Positions 2,381-59,824 of a DNA stretch of 64,000 nt are shown piece after piece. The stretch is from Thermoproteota archaeon (GTDB lineage Archaea > Korarchaeota > JAOZGF01 > JAOZFZ01), in the NCBI GenBank assembly GCA_027492035.1, contig JAOZFT010000004.1:113929-177928 (forward strand), read 5' to 3'. A program made the translations under genes and the position numbers. A model generated the notes under the pieces. That model was given only the letters and a program-made list of their open reading frames with translations. It had not been told where the DNA came from and made no database searches. Within the stretch, counting starts at the first letter, position 1, and every line of letters begins with the position of its first letter.

Positions 2381-3484
2381 ATGACAGATTTATGTTTCAT
2401 ATCTAACAGTTTTCCTCCGGATAAAGTTGGCAGCAAAGAATATTACGCGTTTCACGTATACAACCGCGTAAAACCAATTTGGGATGTAAAAGTAATAACT
2501 AAACATTGGTTATTAAAAATTCAAGATGAAAACGTTATCCAACTGGATTTCTGGAAAGTAAGAAAGATAGGAACTTACCTCTGGGCTCATAAAGTAGCTA
2601 AGGTTTTGAAGGAACAAAACCCAAAACATGTTCATGCCTTCGATTTTAGATCAATTTATTCAGCTTATTTGAGCGGCTTAAATTTTTCAGGGACATTACA
2701 CCATGAAGACATAAATTACATATCTAAACACTTTCTTCTCAAAAGAGTTTTTAGGAAATACTTTGAGAAAAGCGACAAGGTTTTCGTAACCAACTATAAA
2801 TCGTTAAATCTTCTGAAGAATTCCTTTAAGGATATAACCGATAAACTTGAACTTCTACCTTTAGGAGTTGATGCAAATAAGTTTTCTCCCTTTCAAAAGA
2901 CCAACACTATAAAGAAAAGGCTAAGTCTAGGCGAGAATGTTATTTTGCACGTCAGTGGTGAACTAACCCAAAACCAAGAATTAAAAAATTTAATTGAAGC
3001 ATACCGTAAATTAAAGAAAGAAATAAATGTCTCTTTGCTGATAATAGGGAAACCCTCTGAGAGTTTCAAAGATAAGTACAACCAACTTGTTAGAAACAGT
3101 CCCGACGTGACTTTCCTGGAATTTGTCCCTCACACAGAAATAAACAAGTATTACGCTTTAGCTGATGTTTTTGTTACCTTACCTTTAAAATATGACGGTG
3201 TGGGTTTGTCCATTCTGGAGGCAATGGCTTCAGCCACTCCTGTAATTTGTCCTCCTTCAGAAATCTATAAAGAAATGGGGGAGGAAAATATATTAACAGT
3301 CCCTAATGTAAAGGATGTTAAGGCACTAACAAAAATTCTAAAGGCTGTTCTAACAGATAAGAAATTCTCTAAAACATTAGGCTACAAGTCAAGGAAGTAT
3401 GTGATGGAGAATTATACGATCGAAACAATGATTTCTAAGTTGTCAAAGTATTTTGAAGAGAAAATAAAAAAAGTGAAATCTTGA
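2381..3484 (+). CDS. Glycosyltransferase, family 4 (GT-B fold)
   Basis: C-terminal EAMASATPVICPP motif typical of GT4/group 1 glycosyltransferases; ATG at 2381 preferred over the TTG at 2372. Confidence 0.7.
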   Translation: MTDLCFISNSFPPDKVGSKEYYAFHVYNRVKPIWDVKVITKHWLLKIQDENVIQLDFWKVRKIGTYLWAHKVAKVLKEQNPKHVHAFDFRSIYSAYLSGLNFSGTLHHEDINYISKHFLLKRVFRKYFEKSDKVFVTNYKSLNLLKNSFKDITDKLELLPLGVDANKFSPFQKTNTIKKRLSLGENVILHVSGELTQNQELKNLIEAYRKLKKEINVSLLIIGKPSESFKDKYNQLVRNSPDVTFLEFVPHTEINKYYALADVFVTLPLKYDGVGLSILEAMASATPVICPPSEIYKEMGEENILTVPNVKDVKALTKILKAVLTDKKFSKTLGYKSRKYVMENYTIETMISKLSKYFEEKIKKVKS

Positions 3485-3550
3485 AAGGCTACACCATATT
3501 TCATAACAAGGCTTTTCCGAAGCTAGAAATGCTCTAAGGAATTTAAAAAG

Positions 3551-5146
3551 TTAGGGTAAATATTTGACCATATAAGCCCCCAAGTGTTCGTACCCTAGCC
3601 TTTTATAGTATAATTTTGTACCTAAAGCGCTTGTTACCAGAATTTTCTCTTTACGGTGCTTTTCACTTATTTCTTCAGCTAAAGATAAAAGCTTCTTTCC
3701 TACACCCTTATGCTGGTAAGCATTTTTTTTCTTGGCACCTACAGGAATCATCTCGCCATAAACATGCAGCTCACGAACTAACGCTGACTTACCCCTTATC
3801 TCCCACCTGAAAACCTTTGAAGAAGGAAATCTGAGCCTAAGAAAACCTACCAATGCGTCCTCTAACTTAGCCGTTAAAAAGAATTCACGCCCCCCCGAGG
3901 CTTCATAACTAGTTATTTCATAACTTATTTCACAGGAACCTTCCTTTTTCTTCTTCAAACGACCTATTTCATTACATCTTATGCATTTGCATCTTAACCC
4001 CTTTTCATCCATGTATTCCTTAATAAGTTGTCTTAAATTGCTTTTCTTAACACCAGCTGCTATTTCCGGTGCTGGGATGTCACGTTGAACCCGCATTATC
4101 CGCACCCAAGGCGGAACTAAGGATTTTATTGCAGCAATTACTTCAATTGCAGTTTCTAAACTGTAAGGGATGTACACCCCCTCTTTCCAAAGGGTATAAA
4201 GCTTAGTTCCAGGAATAACCAAGGTGGGGTAGATCTTTAACATGTCAGGTTTAAATTTCTCATCCATGAATATTTCCTTCGCCATTGAAACATCCATCTT
4301 AGGAGTTGAACCAGGTAAACCAGGCATGATATGGTAACATACTTTTAAACCGGAGTCTTTCAGTTGTTGAGTGGCTTCATAAACATCCTTTACTCCATGT
4401 TCCCTATTTATCAAGGAGTATATTTCATCATAAATGGTTTGTACACCTAATTCAACCCTGGTAACACCTAATTCCAGCATTAAGTTTATATGTTCCTTTT
4501 TTGAATAATCAGGCCTTGTCTCCACAGTTAAACCAACATTTCTTATTTCACTTGACTCAGCAAGCCTTTTTGTTTCCTCTAGCGTCCTTCCTATTTTATT
4601 ATTTAAAGCGTCTAAACATTTTTTCACAAACCCCCTTTGATAATTTCTTGACATTGCAGGGAAAGTGCCTCCCATAATAATTAGTTCAACTTTGCTTACG
4701 GTATGTCCTATGGAGGATAATTGCTTTATACGCTGTTTAACTTGCATGTAAGGATTGAATTCGTTTTGAATTGCCCGCATAGCTGCTGGTTCTTTGCCTG
4801 TATAGCTCTGAGGAACGTCGCCAAAAATCGAACTAGGTCCTCCAGGGCAATAAATACATGGTTTATCTTTGGGACAGGGGAAGGGATGAGTCATAACTGC
4901 TATAACATTCACGCCTGAAAGACTTCTGACATTTTTTATCCTCAACAAGTTTTTAAATTGAAACAGCCCCCTCTTTTCCATGTAGGAGATAATCTCTGAA
5001 TTTTTGGGGACCCTTCTCAAGTTTAGCCTTTTAGCTACCTTAATCTTTAATTTATTAAGTTGAACAGGGTCCACAGTTCCTGAATTGGGAATTTCTTTCA
5101 ACAATTCTTCAGAGAAAACATTTGTGGACCAGAGGGTGTTTTCCAA
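3551..5146 (-). CDS. elp3: Elongator Elp3-like tRNA uridine(34) acetyltransferase (radical SAM + GNAT)
   Basis: Radical SAM cysteine motif CIYCPGGP, 531 aa, C-terminal GNAT-like region HKGVGKKLLSLAEE. Confidence 0.85.
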   Translation of the reverse strand: MENTLWSTNVFSEELLKEIPNSGTVDPVQLNKLKIKVAKRLNLRRVPKNSEIISYMEKRGLFQFKNLLRIKNVRSLSGVNVIAVMTHPFPCPKDKPCIYCPGGPSSIFGDVPQSYTGKEPAAMRAIQNEFNPYMQVKQRIKQLSSIGHTVSKVELIIMGGTFPAMSRNYQRGFVKKCLDALNNKIGRTLEETKRLAESSEIRNVGLTVETRPDYSKKEHINLMLELGVTRVELGVQTIYDEIYSLINREHGVKDVYEATQQLKDSGLKVCYHIMPGLPGSTPKMDVSMAKEIFMDEKFKPDMLKIYPTLVIPGTKLYTLWKEGVYIPYSLETAIEVIAAIKSLVPPWVRIMRVQRDIPAPEIAAGVKKSNLRQLIKEYMDEKGLRCKCIRCNEIGRLKKKKEGSCEISYEITSYEASGGREFFLTAKLEDALVGFLRLRFPSSKVFRWEIRGKSALVRELHVYGEMIPVGAKKKNAYQHKGVGKKLLSLAEEISEKHRKEKILVTSALGTKLYYKRLGYEHLGAYMVKYLP

Positions 5147-5465
5147 TTCTATATACCCCTAAATTTAATTAGTTTGGGAAAGGATAGTTTATTAGGGGGA
5201 GAGAGAAACTTTAATAATATTCTTTTAAATTCTCCTTAGCCTTTCATGGGAGTAGAGGAAAAAAGGCAGGTTTACTTACGTTACTTTTTTAAGGTATACC
5301 TTTATATTTTTAAACATTGAAGGAATTTTATGGAAGGGAAACGTGAGCATGGGATTTCTTTATTGCTTCTCTCCTTTTTTTTAAAAAAAAAGGGAGAGTG
5401 AATGAAAAAGAGTAAAGGGTGAGAAGACTTTCTGCAGGTTAAAATTTTGAGGAGGTGATACTTTT

Positions 5466-5647
5466 ATGCCAAGAGGCAGCCACAGGTTTTAACCGGCTAG
5501 GGCAGCTTGGCAAAGGCAGGAAAGGTTAGAAAAGCTACTCCTAAGGTTGAAGGGAAAAAGAGACGCAGTCCCCCAGCTAGGGTAAGAAATAAAAGAAATT
5601 ACATTAAGAGGGTGTTATTGAAAAGAAAAATTGGTCAACCTAAGTAG
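5466..5647 (+). CDS. rps30e: Ribosomal protein S30e, interrupted: ATG exon 5466-5480, 26-nt intervening sequence 5481-5506, body 5507-5647
   Basis: Body frame encodes (GS)LAKAGKVRKATPKVEGKKRRSPPARVRNKRNYIKRVLLKRKIGQPK, matching the S30e HGSLxKAGKVR core. ATG CCA AGA GGC AGC (MPRGS) sits upstream in another frame; deleting 26 nt joins it in frame to give MPRGSLAKAGKVR... Alternative: simple TTG start at 5507. Confidence 0.5.
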
Positions 5648-20958: not shown

Positions 20959-21561
20959 ATGAACGGGAAACAATTGAAATTAGAATTTTTCGAAAGGATA
21001 TCCTCGGAATTAACTGGAATGGAAAAAGAACGTGAAAAAATTTTGCAGAAAATAAGACAGTGGCTAATTGAAACACGGAAAGTTTTCAATTTAATAAATG
21101 AAGAAAAAACTGAAGAAGCTAATTTAATTTTGCACAAAATATATGAGGAAGTTCGAAAATTTAAAGAAGAAGTTAAGAATTTTTCAGAATATAAAATTTA
21201 TTTTCATCCATTGTACAGGGAACTTGCCGAAGCCTTCTGTTTTTTGGGGATAATTAAGTCTGGAGAAGTTATCAATCCTTATTTACTTGATTTTCCCATA
21301 ATTTCTTTCTTACATGGTTTAACTGAGTCTATAGGTGAATTAAAAAGATTTACATTAAATCAAGTCATAAAAGGGGAAATTAACAAGGCTAAAAAAACCT
21401 TTAATTACATGGAGTCTATTTTTAATGCAATTTCTTTATTAACTGAGTTTCCAGATTCGTTAACCCTGAACCTAAGAAGGAAAATAGATGTAGCCAGGAG
21501 AAACGTTGAAGAAACTAGAAACATTATTGCGTATACAACTCTGCACCAAATGAGGGAATAA
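20959..21561 (+). CDS. Helical protein, possibly translin family
   Basis: 200-aa all-helical ORF; region SEYKIYFHPLYRELAEAFCFLGII resembles the translin core. Weak. Confidence 0.35.
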   Translation: MNGKQLKLEFFERISSELTGMEKEREKILQKIRQWLIETRKVFNLINEEKTEEANLILHKIYEEVRKFKEEVKNFSEYKIYFHPLYRELAEAFCFLGIIKSGEVINPYLLDFPIISFLHGLTESIGELKRFTLNQVIKGEINKAKKTFNYMESIFNAISLLTEFPDSLTLNLRRKIDVARRNVEETRNIIAYTTLHQMRE

Positions 21562-25356: not shown

Positions 25357-25481
25357 TGGGCCCGGCGGGATTTGAACCCGCGACCCTCGGGTTGCTCCTC
25401 CAAAGGGGAGTACTTCTTTGGGATTAAGAGCCCGGTGCTTTAGGCAAATGAGAGGTTTCTACCTTGCTGAGCTACGGGCCC
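25357..25481 (-). tRNA. tRNA-Lys(CUU) with two predicted introns (about 19 nt in the D-stem, about 32 nt in the anticodon loop)
   Basis: 7-bp acceptor GGGCCCG/CGGGCCC, T-arm GCGGG-UUCAAAU-CCCGC. Removing AACCUCUCAUUUGCCUAAA restores D-arm GCUC-AGCAAGGUA-GAGC; anticodon stem CCGGG with loop CUCUUAA after removing a hairpin-forming intron. Isotype from hand folding. Confidence 0.6.
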
Positions 25482-32439: not shown

Positions 32440-32526
32440 GGGCCCGTGGCCTAACATGGATAAGGCGTCGGCCTGCGGTTTTTAGAAGAAAGCCGGAGGA
32501 TGCGGGTTCAAATCCCGCCGGGCCCG
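32440..32526 (+). tRNA. tRNA-Arg(GCG) with 12-nt anticodon-loop intron
   Basis: Acceptor GGGCCCG/CGGGCCC, D-arm GCCU-AACAUGGAUA-AGGC, anticodon stem UCGGC/GCCGG with loop CUGCGG + intron UUUUUAGAAGAA, T-arm GCGGG-UUCAAAU-CCCGC. Confidence 0.75.
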
Positions 32527-36573: not shown

Positions 36574-36664
36574 TGGGCCGGGTGGGATTCGAACCCACGA
36601 CCTCCGCCTTTTTCCAAGGAACAAAACGTGAAGGCGACGTCATAACCATCTAGACCACCGGCCC
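36574..36664 (-). tRNA. tRNA-Val(CAC) with 17-nt anticodon-loop intron
   Basis: Acceptor GGGCCGG/CCGGCCC, anticodon stem UCGCC/GGCGG with loop UUCACG + intron UUUUGUUCCUUGGAAAA, T-arm GUGGG-UUCGAAU-CCCAC. Confidence 0.7.
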
Positions 36665-46119: not shown

Positions 46120-46395
46120 TCAGCCGTTGTCCCTCTCCATTTCTTGCAAAAATTTAACGAAAAGAGAAACCTCGCCTCTTTTAAGATTTAAACAGTACTT
46201 ACGGGGACGGTAAGGGAAAGTTTTGAGCCATTTCACCTCCTCAAGGTCTTTCAAGTACTTTCCTAAAGTTTTTGAGTCAATACCTAAACTTTTTCTAATT
46301 TGGTACTTGGTGTAAAGTAGTGAAGGATTTTTAGCGAGGAAACGAATAAGTTGAACTTTTCGGTAACTTCCTAACACTTTCTTAATTTTATCCAT
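46120..46395 (-). CDS. Small winged-helix transcription regulator
   Basis: 91 aa, HTH-like pattern; divergent from orc1/cdc6. Confidence 0.4.
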   Translation of the reverse strand: MDKIKKVLGSYRKVQLIRFLAKNPSLLYTKYQIRKSLGIDSKTLGKYLKDLEEVKWLKTFPYRPRKYCLNLKRGEVSLFVKFLQEMERDNG

Positions 46396-57521: not shown

Positions 57522-57640
57522 GGGGCCGTAGTCCAGCCAGAGGGAAGCCTAGATATGGGCTTTTCAGGCAAGGTAGGATGCCTGCCTGGGGAAATTAGCC
57601 GGAACGCAGGTGGTCCCGGGTTCAAATCCCGGCGGCCCCA
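57522..57640 (+). tRNA. tRNA-Pro(GGG) with two predicted introns (about 31 nt in the D-loop, about 13 nt in the anticodon loop); CCA encoded (to 57643)
   Basis: Acceptor GGGGCCG/CGGCCCC, D-stem GUCC/GGAU with insertion in the loop, anticodon stem CCUGC/GCAGG with loop CUGGGG + short intron, T-arm CCGGG-UUCAAAU-CCCGG, then A-CCA in the genome. Confidence 0.6.
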
Positions 57641-57721
57641 CCATTCCCAGCTTTTAAAATGTAGAGACGTAAAGAAGGGAATAAGTATTTTTTGAGTATA
57701 ACTCTTTGGAGAAAAGAAACT

Positions 57722-59173
57722 TTAAACCCAAACTTTTTCGGTTAAAACTCCCGAAAGGAAAAGGCTGAGGCCTTTCTTATATACCCCCTCGATCTGCTCA
57801 CTCCCCAAAATTTTGAAAGAAGAGACTAAGTTTTTCTCAACCATGGATTTTCTGTTTAACTTCTTCTTTATAATTTGGGACAATATCTCTTTAACTGAAG
57901 TTTCCTCTCTTTTTAAGTCAACTACTAAACGCTGTCCCTCCAAATAGGGACCTTTCAGAACCAATTTGTTGTTTTCATACTTTTTTAGGAAACTTATAAC
58001 ATTTTCTTTGCTCTTTTGAAGAACCGGTGGACCATAATGTTTTTTGATAGGTAACAACCTCTTTGTAACTGTTTCAAAGATTATGCAACATTTGGTTTGC
58101 TCATTAGTCCAGTAATACTTCCCAATTATTTCTACCCCTTCTTGGCTCATAAGCATAGCTAATTTCTTTGTCGTTTTTTTAAGCTGAGGCCAGATAATAT
58201 CTGGAGACTCTTCTTTTTCTAAACTGAAATCTATAAATAGCCAATAAGAACCTCGTCTCAATACTTTCCTGTTAATTTCATTTAAAGATAAAATTTGAGT
58301 TTTACCAGGGAAAAAGAAGGATAAACTAGGTTTTTTTAAGAAATTAATTGCAGAAATTATGAATTTACTCAAATTTTTATCTGAAACAGCTGCAGCTACA
58401 TTTCTTTCCTTATCAACAGGGTCTATAACGATCAAAGAGCCAGGAAAACTAGCAATTAATTTTTCAGTTAAAGGAAATCTTTCAATGTTTATTATTTCTC
58501 GTTGAGACCACTTTATAGATTCTTGAAGAAGTTTTAAGAAATTGCCATAGTGTAAAATGAGAAGCTCACAAAGATAACCAGAGAAACCTTCAGTTTTTGC
58601 GTCAGCCCCATAAACCGCTATCCCCTTCATAAACTGTTTCAGAATCCTTACTTCAGCAGCTTTTTCCTCTGTAATTTTCCCTTTCAAGTACCTATTGTGG
58701 AAAATTGTTCTATCAACAGAAGATTTTTTCTCTTCTAAACTTTTTATTTGAAAACAAGGCACTAGATCAATTTCGTAAGAGTTAATAATTAACCGGGCAT
58801 AAGGGTGCTCCGCATACTTTATAATTAAGTTTTGTGTTATTTCTTTAGCTATTTTCACTGTTTCATTCTCTAATTCTTCTTTACTGAATGATAAGGGGAA
58901 AGACAAGAAAATATCTATGTCTTTGTCACCTTTTAGCCAAGTATTTCTTGCAGTTGAACCCACTAACTCTGGTTTTGCAGGAATATTTCTTTCTTTACAA
59001 ATTTCTTTTATTTTGCAGAGTAACTTGCTCGTGAACATCTTAACATATTCTATTTCTTTTTTAGAAGGCTCTACCCTATTCAAAACATTTTTAAGGATGT
59101 CTTCAATGAGTTTTCTTTTATTACTGGAAAATGCCTCTTCAACTAGCCAATTTGACTGAAAATAAGGTTTCAT
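57722..59173 (-). CDS. cca: CCA-adding enzyme (archaeal class I tRNA nucleotidyltransferase)
   Basis: GSTARNTWLKGDKDIDIF nucleotidyltransferase motif; 483 aa. Confidence 0.85.
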   Translation of the reverse strand: MKPYFQSNWLVEEAFSSNKRKLIEDILKNVLNRVEPSKKEIEYVKMFTSKLLCKIKEICKERNIPAKPELVGSTARNTWLKGDKDIDIFLSFPLSFSKEELENETVKIAKEITQNLIIKYAEHPYARLIINSYEIDLVPCFQIKSLEEKKSSVDRTIFHNRYLKGKITEEKAAEVRILKQFMKGIAVYGADAKTEGFSGYLCELLILHYGNFLKLLQESIKWSQREIINIERFPLTEKLIASFPGSLIVIDPVDKERNVAAAVSDKNLSKFIISAINFLKKPSLSFFFPGKTQILSLNEINRKVLRRGSYWLFIDFSLEKEESPDIIWPQLKKTTKKLAMLMSQEGVEIIGKYYWTNEQTKCCIIFETVTKRLLPIKKHYGPPVLQKSKENVISFLKKYENNKLVLKGPYLEGQRLVVDLKREETSVKEILSQIIKKKLNRKSMVEKNLVSSFKILGSEQIEGVYKKGLSLFLSGVLTEKVWV

Positions 59174-59702
59174 AAACAGGACCCTTTGGCGTAAGTACAG
59201 ATTTCTTTAACTTAATTTCATTAACCTCTAACGGACCGAAATCCATGTTTTTGAGGGTTAAAAGCGCACTAACTAAGCTTTTCTCCTTAACGAAACGTTT
59301 AACTCTACCCAATGTTATATGGGAAGTAAACTCTTTTCCCAAGTCATAATTTATGTCTTTCCCAAACGAAGAAAGTAAGGCGTTGTAGACCTCCCTTATT
59401 TTTTCGTTATTTTCAGAAACTCCCACCCAGATTACTCTGGGTTTTTTCATGTTTGGAAATGCCCCTACACCACTTAACTTTACAATGAATGACTTTATAT
59501 CTGAGAGAGGCTTCATCCGTTCCTTTATTAACTTTATTTCTTCATTGTTTTTTTCTCCTAAAAAAATTAGGGTGATATGCAAATTCTGAGGCTCTACCAA
59601 TTTTATAGGAATGTTTAAAGAAGCTAATTTATTTTGAACAGTCATTATTTTATTTCTCACTTCTTTATCAGTAACATCAATTGAAATAAAACAACGAACC
59701 AA
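59139..59702 (-). CDS. thpR: RNA 2',3'-cyclic phosphodiesterase (2H family, LigT/ThpR)
   Basis: Two HxT motifs (HITLIFLG and HITLGRV); 187 aa; overlaps the cca start. Confidence 0.8.
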   Translation of the reverse strand: MVRCFISIDVTDKEVRNKIMTVQNKLASLNIPIKLVEPQNLHITLIFLGEKNNEEIKLIKERMKPLSDIKSFIVKLSGVGAFPNMKKPRVIWVGVSENNEKIREVYNALLSSFGKDINYDLGKEFTSHITLGRVKRFVKEKSLVSALLTLKNMDFGPLEVNEIKLKKSVLTPKGPVYETLFSVKLAS

Positions 59703-59824
59703 GCTTTCGCCACCTTCCTATAAAGTTTTATTAAATTTAAAAATAAAGAACAACGTGGAAAATTTAAGTTTGTAACAGATTAAAAAATTTCTTTAAAAGA
59801 GATTTATTGAAAAGATGAAAAGCC

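Follow-up and report, generated by a model that had tools for sequence, protein, structure and literature searches.

We identified a putative intron within the gene for ribosomal protein S30e (rps30e, positions 5466-5647, plus strand) in a 64,000-nt stretch of the archaeal contig JAOZFT010000004.1 (assembly GCA_027492035.1), in the following referred to as the window. The gene is not readable as one open reading frame (ORF). As judged from ortholog comparison and from the predicted RNA fold, its codons 6 (His, CAC) and 7 (Gly, GGC) are very probably separated by a bulge-helix-bulge (BHB) intron of 17 nt, which would be spliced out of the pre-mRNA. A first-pass annotation of the window had proposed a protein-gene intron at this locus acting as substrate of the tRNA-splicing endonuclease. 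This core idea is strongly supported by our data, whereas the length assigned to the intron, the role ascribed to a flanking sequence repeat and the description of the fold as relaxed turned out to be wrong.

The ATG at 5466 opens a frame encoding MPRGSHRF, which is closed by a TAA at 5490-5492. The frame of the S30e body has a TAG at 5498-5500 directly before GGC AGC TTG GCA AAG, and its segment 5501-5647 encodes GSLAKAGKVRKATPKV...QPK followed by the stop codon. The hexamer GGCAGC is present twice, at 5475-5480 and at 5501-5506. On frames, stop codons, the ATG and the repeats the first-pass annotation was correct throughout, as direct reading of the bases confirmed, and its assignment of the body to S30e is borne out by matches to Pfam PF04758 (3e-9), NCBIfam PRK09336 (1e-15) and archaeal as well as eukaryotic eS30 chains in the PDB. 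We divide the locus into exon 1 (5466-5483; ATG CCA AGA GGC AGC CAC, encoding MPRGSH), a 17-nt candidate intron (5484-5500; AGGTTTTAACCGGCTAG), defined by ortholog comparison and by the cuts predicted from the fold, and exon 2 (5501-5647; GSLAKAGKVRKATPKVEGKKRRSPPARVRNKRNYIKRVLLKRKIGQPK, then the stop codon TAG at 5645-5647), to which the S30e matches in Pfam, NCBIfam and PDB belong. Removal of 5484-5500 results in a coding sequence (CDS) of 165 nt, the same length as in the uninterrupted gene of the related assembly GCA_027491945 (L004). It encodes 54 aa with the N-terminus MPRGSHGSLAKAGKVRK and the end ...QPK, and the protein is 80% identical to the S30e of L004 with the same N-terminus. Upstream of exon 1, direct reading reveals an 11-nt Shine-Dalgarno (SD)-like sequence (GAGGAGGTGAT, 5450-5460) ending 5 nt before the ATG, which is the longest intergenic string of this kind in the 64-kb window and which, without removal of the intron, serves merely an ORF of eight codons. 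The intron 17-mer has a single occurrence in the window. L001 and L002, two independent assemblies of this species, contain the same 301 nt, and because the sequence is identical in both, the insert is not an assembly artefact.

Relatives were found via the adjacent nop5 gene, and their loci were then retrieved and aligned. The clade assemblies are GCA_027491775, GCA_027492235, GCA_027492105 (L003), GCA_027491945 (L004), GCA_027491845 (L099) and GCA_027491455, the rps30e gene of the latter lying outside the comparison. The gene order elp3 (minus strand), rps30e, nop5, fibrillarin and trm1 is common to four species; for the closest three of them, identity amounts to 47, 43 and 45% in Nop5 (47% between the window and L003) and to 80-82% in EF-2. 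In L004 and L099, rps30e is called as an uninterrupted gene of 54-55 codons beginning with ATG CCA AGA GGC AGC CAC GGA AGC CTT GCA AAG (MPRGSHGSLAK), showing that the MPRGS-type N-terminus, the conservation of which had been proposed as a check, is indeed shared by relatives. The amino acids of exon 1 correspond to the first six codons of both genes, and codons 2-6 are nucleotide-identical to those of L004. The DNA alignment places the insert exactly between CAC (His6) and GGN (Gly7), with 17 nt in the window and 19 nt in L003 (TGGGCTTATGCCCGGCTAG). The borders of the insert cannot slide, as the bases on its two sides are different, and its removal leads to a 165-nt CDS in the window species and in L003 alike. 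His6, Gly7, Ser8 and Leu9 are invariant in 17 of 17 aligned S30e sequences, and exon 1 must therefore be joined in frame directly before Gly-Ser-Leu; the spliced protein carries the invariant GSHGSLAKAGKVR N-terminus.

These alignments also correct the intron length of 26 nt that had been put forward initially. Deletion of 26 nt does restore the frame, giving MPRGSLAKAGKVRK... (MPRGSLAK), but it drops Gly-Ser-His, and the orthologs support 17 nt. The product of the longer deletion had been considered to fit the usual S30e N-terminus; the intron-less orthologs, however, read MPRGSHGSLAK. The GGCAGC repeat, interpreted as an ambiguity of the junction, is the coding sequence for GS-H-GS and is found in the intron-less orthologs as well (GGC AGC CAC GGA AGC).

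All four related species have retained an SD sequence, a start codon and the codons for PRGSH, and the 15 nt encoding PRGSH in exon 1 are base-for-base identical in both intron-bearing species and in L004. Between the exons of the window and those of L003, 23 codons are identical, 19 differ synonymously and 13 non-synonymously, with no stop codon among them; as judged from this comparison, the exons are under purifying selection. All other S30e genes within our reach are uninterrupted at the His-Gly position, comprising 11 metagenomic loci, five Thorarchaeota or uncultured-archaeon loci, two 'Asgardarchaeia' loci, L004 and L099. The intron may have been gained once, or it may have been gained and subsequently lost. 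The location of rps30e about 2 kb upstream of nop5 was also observed in the Thorarchaeota loci L049, L052, L057 and L058 and in the uncultured archaeon L053, with the gene being intact in all five. The more distant Nop5 relatives L096-L098 were considered for comparison and discarded, as their loci are not syntenic and are uninformative.

The second line of evidence comes from RNA folding. At minimum free energy (MFE), the segment 5466-5513 folds into a strict hBHBh' motif, which by the published definition (PMC6379350) has two bulges of 3 nt with a 4-bp helix between them; the bulges are on opposite strands. The search for a BHB motif by RNA folding, suggested in the first-pass annotation, was thus successful, the motif being strict and not relaxed as assumed there. 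The pairings noted there, GCCAAG (5468-5473) with CTTGGC (5506-5511) and AGCC (5478-5481) with GGCT (5495-5498), are in fact parts of helix h and helix H, respectively. Helix h is predicted to form between a 5' strand in exon 1 (5467-5477; UGCCAAG-AG-GC), which includes the UG of the start codon, and a 3' strand in exon 2 (5502-5512; GC-AG-CUUGGCA), with 7 bp between 5467-5473 and 5506-5512, 2 bp between 5476-5477 and 5502-5503 and a tandem A.G/G.A at 5474-5475/5504-5505. Helix H pairs AGCC of exon 1 (5478-5481) with GGCU of the intron (5495-5498). Bulge B1 (5482-5484) consists of A C / A and bulge B2 (5499-5501) of A G / G, the slash marking the predicted cut, and the inner hairpin h' (5485-5494; GGU-UUUA-ACC) has 3 bp and a 4-nt loop. 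The TAG closing the body frame is made up of the U of helix H at 5498 and the first two nucleotides of B2. With a fold energy of -20.3 kcal/mol (z = -3.25), none of 200 shuffled sequences is as stable. The BHB structure accounts for 62% of the ensemble and is also the MFE structure in a 141-nt context (sampled pair probabilities of about 0.7) and up to 70 °C. According to the cleavage rule, BHB motifs are cut between the second and third bulge residues (PMC2738675), and the cuts predicted in this way, 5483|5484 and 5500|5501, are identical to the insert borders derived from the orthologs.

Comparison of the two intron-bearing species supports the fold further. L003 folds the same way, and the sequence of the intron-less L004 forms no such motif. 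Helices H and h are identical in the window and in L003, as are the first two nucleotides of each bulge, with the third nucleotide of B1 differing. The stem of h' is GGU/ACC in the window versus GGGC/GCCC in L003 (GGGC-UUAU-GCCC), its third pair having changed from U-A to G-C with both sides altered. Moreover, helix h requires the synonymous codons GGC for Gly7 and UUG for Leu9, which are present only in the two intron-bearing species, whereas the intron-less species use GGA and CUU, codons that would leave 5 or 3 of the 10 helix h pairs instead of 8. The motif alone is not rare in this AT-rich window: a generic BHB scan at the criteria fulfilled by the site gives 14 matches in the window versus 4-9 in shuffled sequences. 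The significance lies in the coincidence of the motif with the insert borders. With about 6 matches expected by chance, finding a motif at the pre-specified start and with the pre-specified length has a probability of approximately 6/(128,000 strand positions x 50 lengths), i.e. about 1e-6.

At the level of sequence and modelled structure, the locus shows all structural and comparative features of a BHB intron that are accessible to computation. This is in agreement with a model in which exon 1 (5467-5477) and exon 2 (5502-5512) would pair in the pre-mRNA to form helix h, AGCC and GGCU would form helix H and the intron interior would fold into h'. By analogy to the archaeal BHB pathway, the splicing endonuclease EndA would bind the BHB motif and cut after C5483 and after G5500, and an RtcB-type ligase would join the 2',3'-cyclic phosphate and 5'-OH ends. 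The 17-nt intron would be released, resulting in a spliced mRNA reading ATG CCA AGA GGC AGC CAC|GGC AGC TTG with the junction ...GGCAGCCAC|GGCAGCTTGG..., and translation starting at ATG 5466, behind the SD sequence, would give the 54-aa S30e; the unspliced RNA would yield the octapeptide MPRGSHRF only. The intron-bearing tRNA genes of the window imply that the organism possesses the splicing machinery.

Several observations weigh against this interpretation. A motif scan of all window ORFs of at least 80 aa, together with Pfam searches on ten ORFs, did not identify endA or rtcB among the ORFs checked. Scans of metagenomes gave no further intron-bearing copies of rps30e: a degenerate pattern spanning the junction had 0 matches in the JGI metagenomes, and the core pattern KAGKVRKATP retrieved 11 metagenomic loci, all uninterrupted, belonging to other lineages and starting with MPTHGSMTKAGK... 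A separate scan of genome contigs based on Nop5 was dominated by a universally conserved peptide; it matched Hadarchaeota, Thermococci, Thorarchaeota and others but missed the clade of the window itself. The 5.8 billion clustered proteins searched contain neither a protein of the spliced form nor a gene call derived from cDNA. Two distinct intron sequences are known, so that the covariation evidence amounts to one stem. Leu9 is encoded by TTG, a potential alternative start codon, in both intron-bearing species. Finally, the exon-exon hairpin takes in part of the AUG and, according to the prediction, is retained in the spliced mRNA with a loop of 7 nt, which bears on initiation efficiency.

The TTG at Leu9 leads to the alternative that no splicing occurs and that translation starts at TTG 5507, producing a 46-aa S30e (MAKAGKVRK...) with the ATG-PRGSH stretch as a relic or a leader mini-ORF. 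This start opens the longest mechanical ORF, L003 likewise has TTG at the same codon, and the 46-aa product lies at the Pfam cut-off (27.0 bits versus a cut-off of 27). However, the comparative data contradict this alternative, which had already been listed in the first-pass annotation and which we regard as improbable. Starting at TTG removes the His-Gly-Ser-Leu conserved in all 17 homologues and lowers the scores from 37.3 to 27.0 bits in Pfam and from 57.1 to 47.7 bits in NCBIfam. There is no good SD sequence upstream of TTG 5507, in contrast to the 11-nt SD-like string before ATG 5466, and exon 1 has been kept base for base despite the broken frame, whereas a relic would not be so preserved. 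The TTG codon itself is independently explained by the pairing of Leu9 within helix h.

A second alternative is that a short insertion disrupted rps30e and that the gene is a decaying pseudogene, non-functional in this lineage. That gene callers passed over the locus in three assemblies would fit with this explanation, as would S30e not being universal among archaea (PMC3082918). We consider it quite improbable, given that two species with Nop5 proteins of only 47% identity keep the site, intact exons, the SD sequence and the start codon, with synonymous changes exceeding non-synonymous ones (19 versus 13). In addition, the insert changes between the window and L003 preserve the strict BHB motif, and random inserts would not give cleavage sites that restore the frame exactly.

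Ribosomal recoding, either by a programmed frameshift or by a bypass similar to T4 gene 60 from GGC AGC at 5475-5480 to 5501-5506, could draw on the identical 6-nt take-off and landing sequences 26 nt apart and on the stable hairpin between them. Yet, it is very unlikely to apply here. A single frameshift, one of the alternatives named at the outset, is impossible because the ATG frame ends with the TAA at 5490-5492 and the body frame opens only after the TAG at 5498-5500. A hop of 26 nt from AGC 5478-5480 to AGC 5504-5506 gives MPRGSLAK... without the invariant His6, and a hop of 17 nt has no matching landing codon (CAC versus UAG). The take-off codon is followed by CAC and not by a stop codon, and the GGCAGC repeat is ordinary coding sequence in intron-less orthologs. 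Translational bypassing is not known to occur in archaea.

An assembly or sequencing artefact, or the footprint of a mobile element with a 6-bp target duplication (formulated in the first-pass annotation as a 20-bp insertion), would account for GGCAGC flanking the insert but has a practically negligible probability, as the window and two separate assemblies share the sequence, a homologous insert of another length (19 nt) occupies the same site in L003, the supposed duplication is GS-H-GS coding sequence present without an insert too (GGCAGC...GG(A/C)AGC in intron-less genes) and the 17-mer is unique in the window. A self-splicing group I or II intron was rejected, the insert having 17 nt versus a catalytic core of hundreds of nucleotides, and no intron family of Rfam matches the window.

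Returning to the BHB intron as the preferred explanation, its splicing could serve as a gate tying S30e production to the tRNA/rRNA splicing machinery in a HAC1/XBP1-like manner, perhaps with the intron being one of several BHB introns in protein genes of the lineage. This idea, which is based on the unspliced mRNA yielding an 8-residue peptide and on the exon-exon helix covering the start codon, is speculative and rather unlikely. A translational switch in which splicing relieves an occlusion of the AUG is not supported, as the exon-exon hairpin is predicted to survive splicing. Regarding further introns, no second protein-gene intron is callable in the window: a relaxed motif gives 5141 matches, and the ORFs 'restored' by them are fused neighbouring genes. 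An SD-like string at 46240 (minus strand) was evaluated as the mark of a second split gene and rejected, since it is internal to an ORF of 91 aa.

In the literature searched, the documented BHB introns in archaeal mRNAs are those in the CDS of cbf5 in Crenarchaeota and that in the 5' untranslated region of Haloferax HVO_1309. The cbf5 introns of Aeropyrum, Sulfolobales and Desulfurococcales have 16-44 nt, are located in the CDS, show a patchy distribution and have often been mis-annotated or taken for frameshifts (PMC2738675; Watanabe et al. 2002; Yokobori et al. 2009). A paper from 2020 refers to cbf5 as 'only one example' before HVO_1309, and a review from 2023 states 'at least two archaeal genes ... 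more remain to be discovered'. Literature searches for S30e combined with intron and for Asgard combined with BHB retrieved nothing relevant, most subscription journals being outside their coverage. Within the literature searched, to which any claim of priority is limited, rps30e appears to be the second case of an archaeal BHB intron in a CDS and the first in a ribosomal protein gene.

The rps30e intron resembles those of cbf5 in being a short intron inside a CDS (17-19 nt in rps30e, 16-44 nt in cbf5) with BHB-type borders and a cut between bulge residues 2 and 3, in interrupting a strictly conserved part of the protein, in its patchy presence among close relatives and in having been missed or mis-called by gene finders. 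It differs by its host gene, which encodes ribosomal protein S30e and not a pseudouridine synthase, and by its occurrence in a little-sampled lineage. The rps30e motif is of the strict hBHBh' type, in contrast to the mostly unconventional or relaxed motifs described for cbf5, and the intron lies just 18 nt after the start codon with helix h including part of the AUG. Splicing of cbf5 was shown experimentally; the rps30e intron is predicted from sequence and fold. HVO_1309 of Haloferax volcanii (Schwarz et al. 2020, PMC7714728) is likewise an mRNA, and not a tRNA or rRNA, that serves the tRNA-splicing endonuclease as substrate, but its intron is located in the untranslated leader, leaving the reading frame uninterrupted, and the organism is a euryarchaeon with an alpha2-type enzyme. 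With the BHB introns and processing stems of archaeal tRNAs and rRNAs, the rps30e motif shares the two 3-nt bulges and the 4-bp helix, and EndA and the ligase are presumably the same. In contrast to these, its host is an mRNA, in which the frame must be restored, and its helix h consists of coding sequence, constraining synonymous codons. The splicing of HAC1/XBP1 mRNA by IRE1 is comparable in that a protein endonuclease excises a short frame-changing intron, no spliceosome being involved, and an RtcB-type ligase joins the ends. The XBP1 intron has 26 nt. HAC1/XBP1 splicing differs in using the unrelated endonuclease IRE1 and twin stem-loops instead of a BHB motif and in acting as a regulated stress switch.

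Concerning the host, this uncultured archaeon has a G+C content of 36%, with the tRNAs being G+C-rich. S30e is closest to Asgard sequences, with 74% identity to an 'Asgardarchaeia' protein and the GSHGSL N-terminus in common. The rps30e-nop5 neighbourhood together with this N-terminus hints, at the sequence level, at an Asgard affiliation of the lineage; EF-2, being 61-62% identical to Bathyarchaeia and Lokiarchaeia alike, does not settle the affiliation.

Three intron-bearing tRNA genes were detected in the window as Rfam matches of 87-125 nt in length, located at 25357-25481 (minus strand, 125 nt), 32440-32526 (plus strand, 87 nt) and 36574-36664 (minus strand, 91 nt). The statement in the first-pass annotation that tRNA introns are as short as 12 nt holds insofar as ARAGORN with option -i reports introns of 12-41 nt. 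Its intron placements, however, are inconsistent between modes, as are the anticodon calls (the same gene being called Arg-CCT or Phe-AAA), which makes the tRNA introns unusable as a control for the cleavage rule. An additional tRNA-like gene at 57522-57643 (plus strand) is found by ARAGORN in intron mode only. Its CCA end is encoded, its variable arm is long, and it contains one or more introns. It is missed at the Rfam gathering threshold and by default ARAGORN, its T-arm region is flagged in the BHB scan, and its introns may be non-canonical or multiple. Close by, a gene for a LigT-like 2H phosphoesterase (2'-5' RNA ligase family) lies directly upstream of the gene for the CCA-adding enzyme and slightly overlaps with it (57722-59206 and 59139-59717, both on the minus strand). 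Together with the adjoining hidden tRNA gene, these two genes look like a small cluster for RNA end-processing.

A few further features of the window and its relatives were observed. The ORF at 20959-21558 (plus strand) matches the Translin family (Pfam PF01997, 6e-13) of nucleic-acid-binding proteins best known from eukaryotes. In the spacer between the divergent genes elp3 and rps30e, a near-perfect palindrome (CTCTCC-T8-A9-GGGAGAG, 5369-5398) is present. It may form a hairpin or represent a promoter or terminator element rich in A/T, and the motif scan picks it up as a chance 'BHB'. In L099, nop5 (2700-3847) is called as two ORFs of 58 aa and 323 aa meeting at 2876. This break lies about 10 nt after a run of nine A (approximately 2858-2866) and is probably due to a homopolymer sequencing error rather than to an intron.

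As to its wider meaning, rps30e is absent from the gene calls of three public assemblies (L001, L002 and L003) at this locus (window positions 5451-5647). Standard gene callers silently lose such genes, so that S30e would be wrongly scored as missing, distorting ribosomal-protein tables and marker sets of uncultured archaea. With its 48 nt, the segment 5466-5513 would be a clean and minimal substrate on which the recognition of mRNA by EndA can be studied, and the adaptation of the exon codons to the splicing helix illustrates in compact form how RNA structure constrains synonymous sites. If the interpretation is true, a second CDS example would indicate that the phenomenon is neither a peculiarity of cbf5, as a ribosomal protein gene, a textbook strict BHB motif and presence/absence variation among close relatives would come together at this locus, nor confined to Crenarchaeota.

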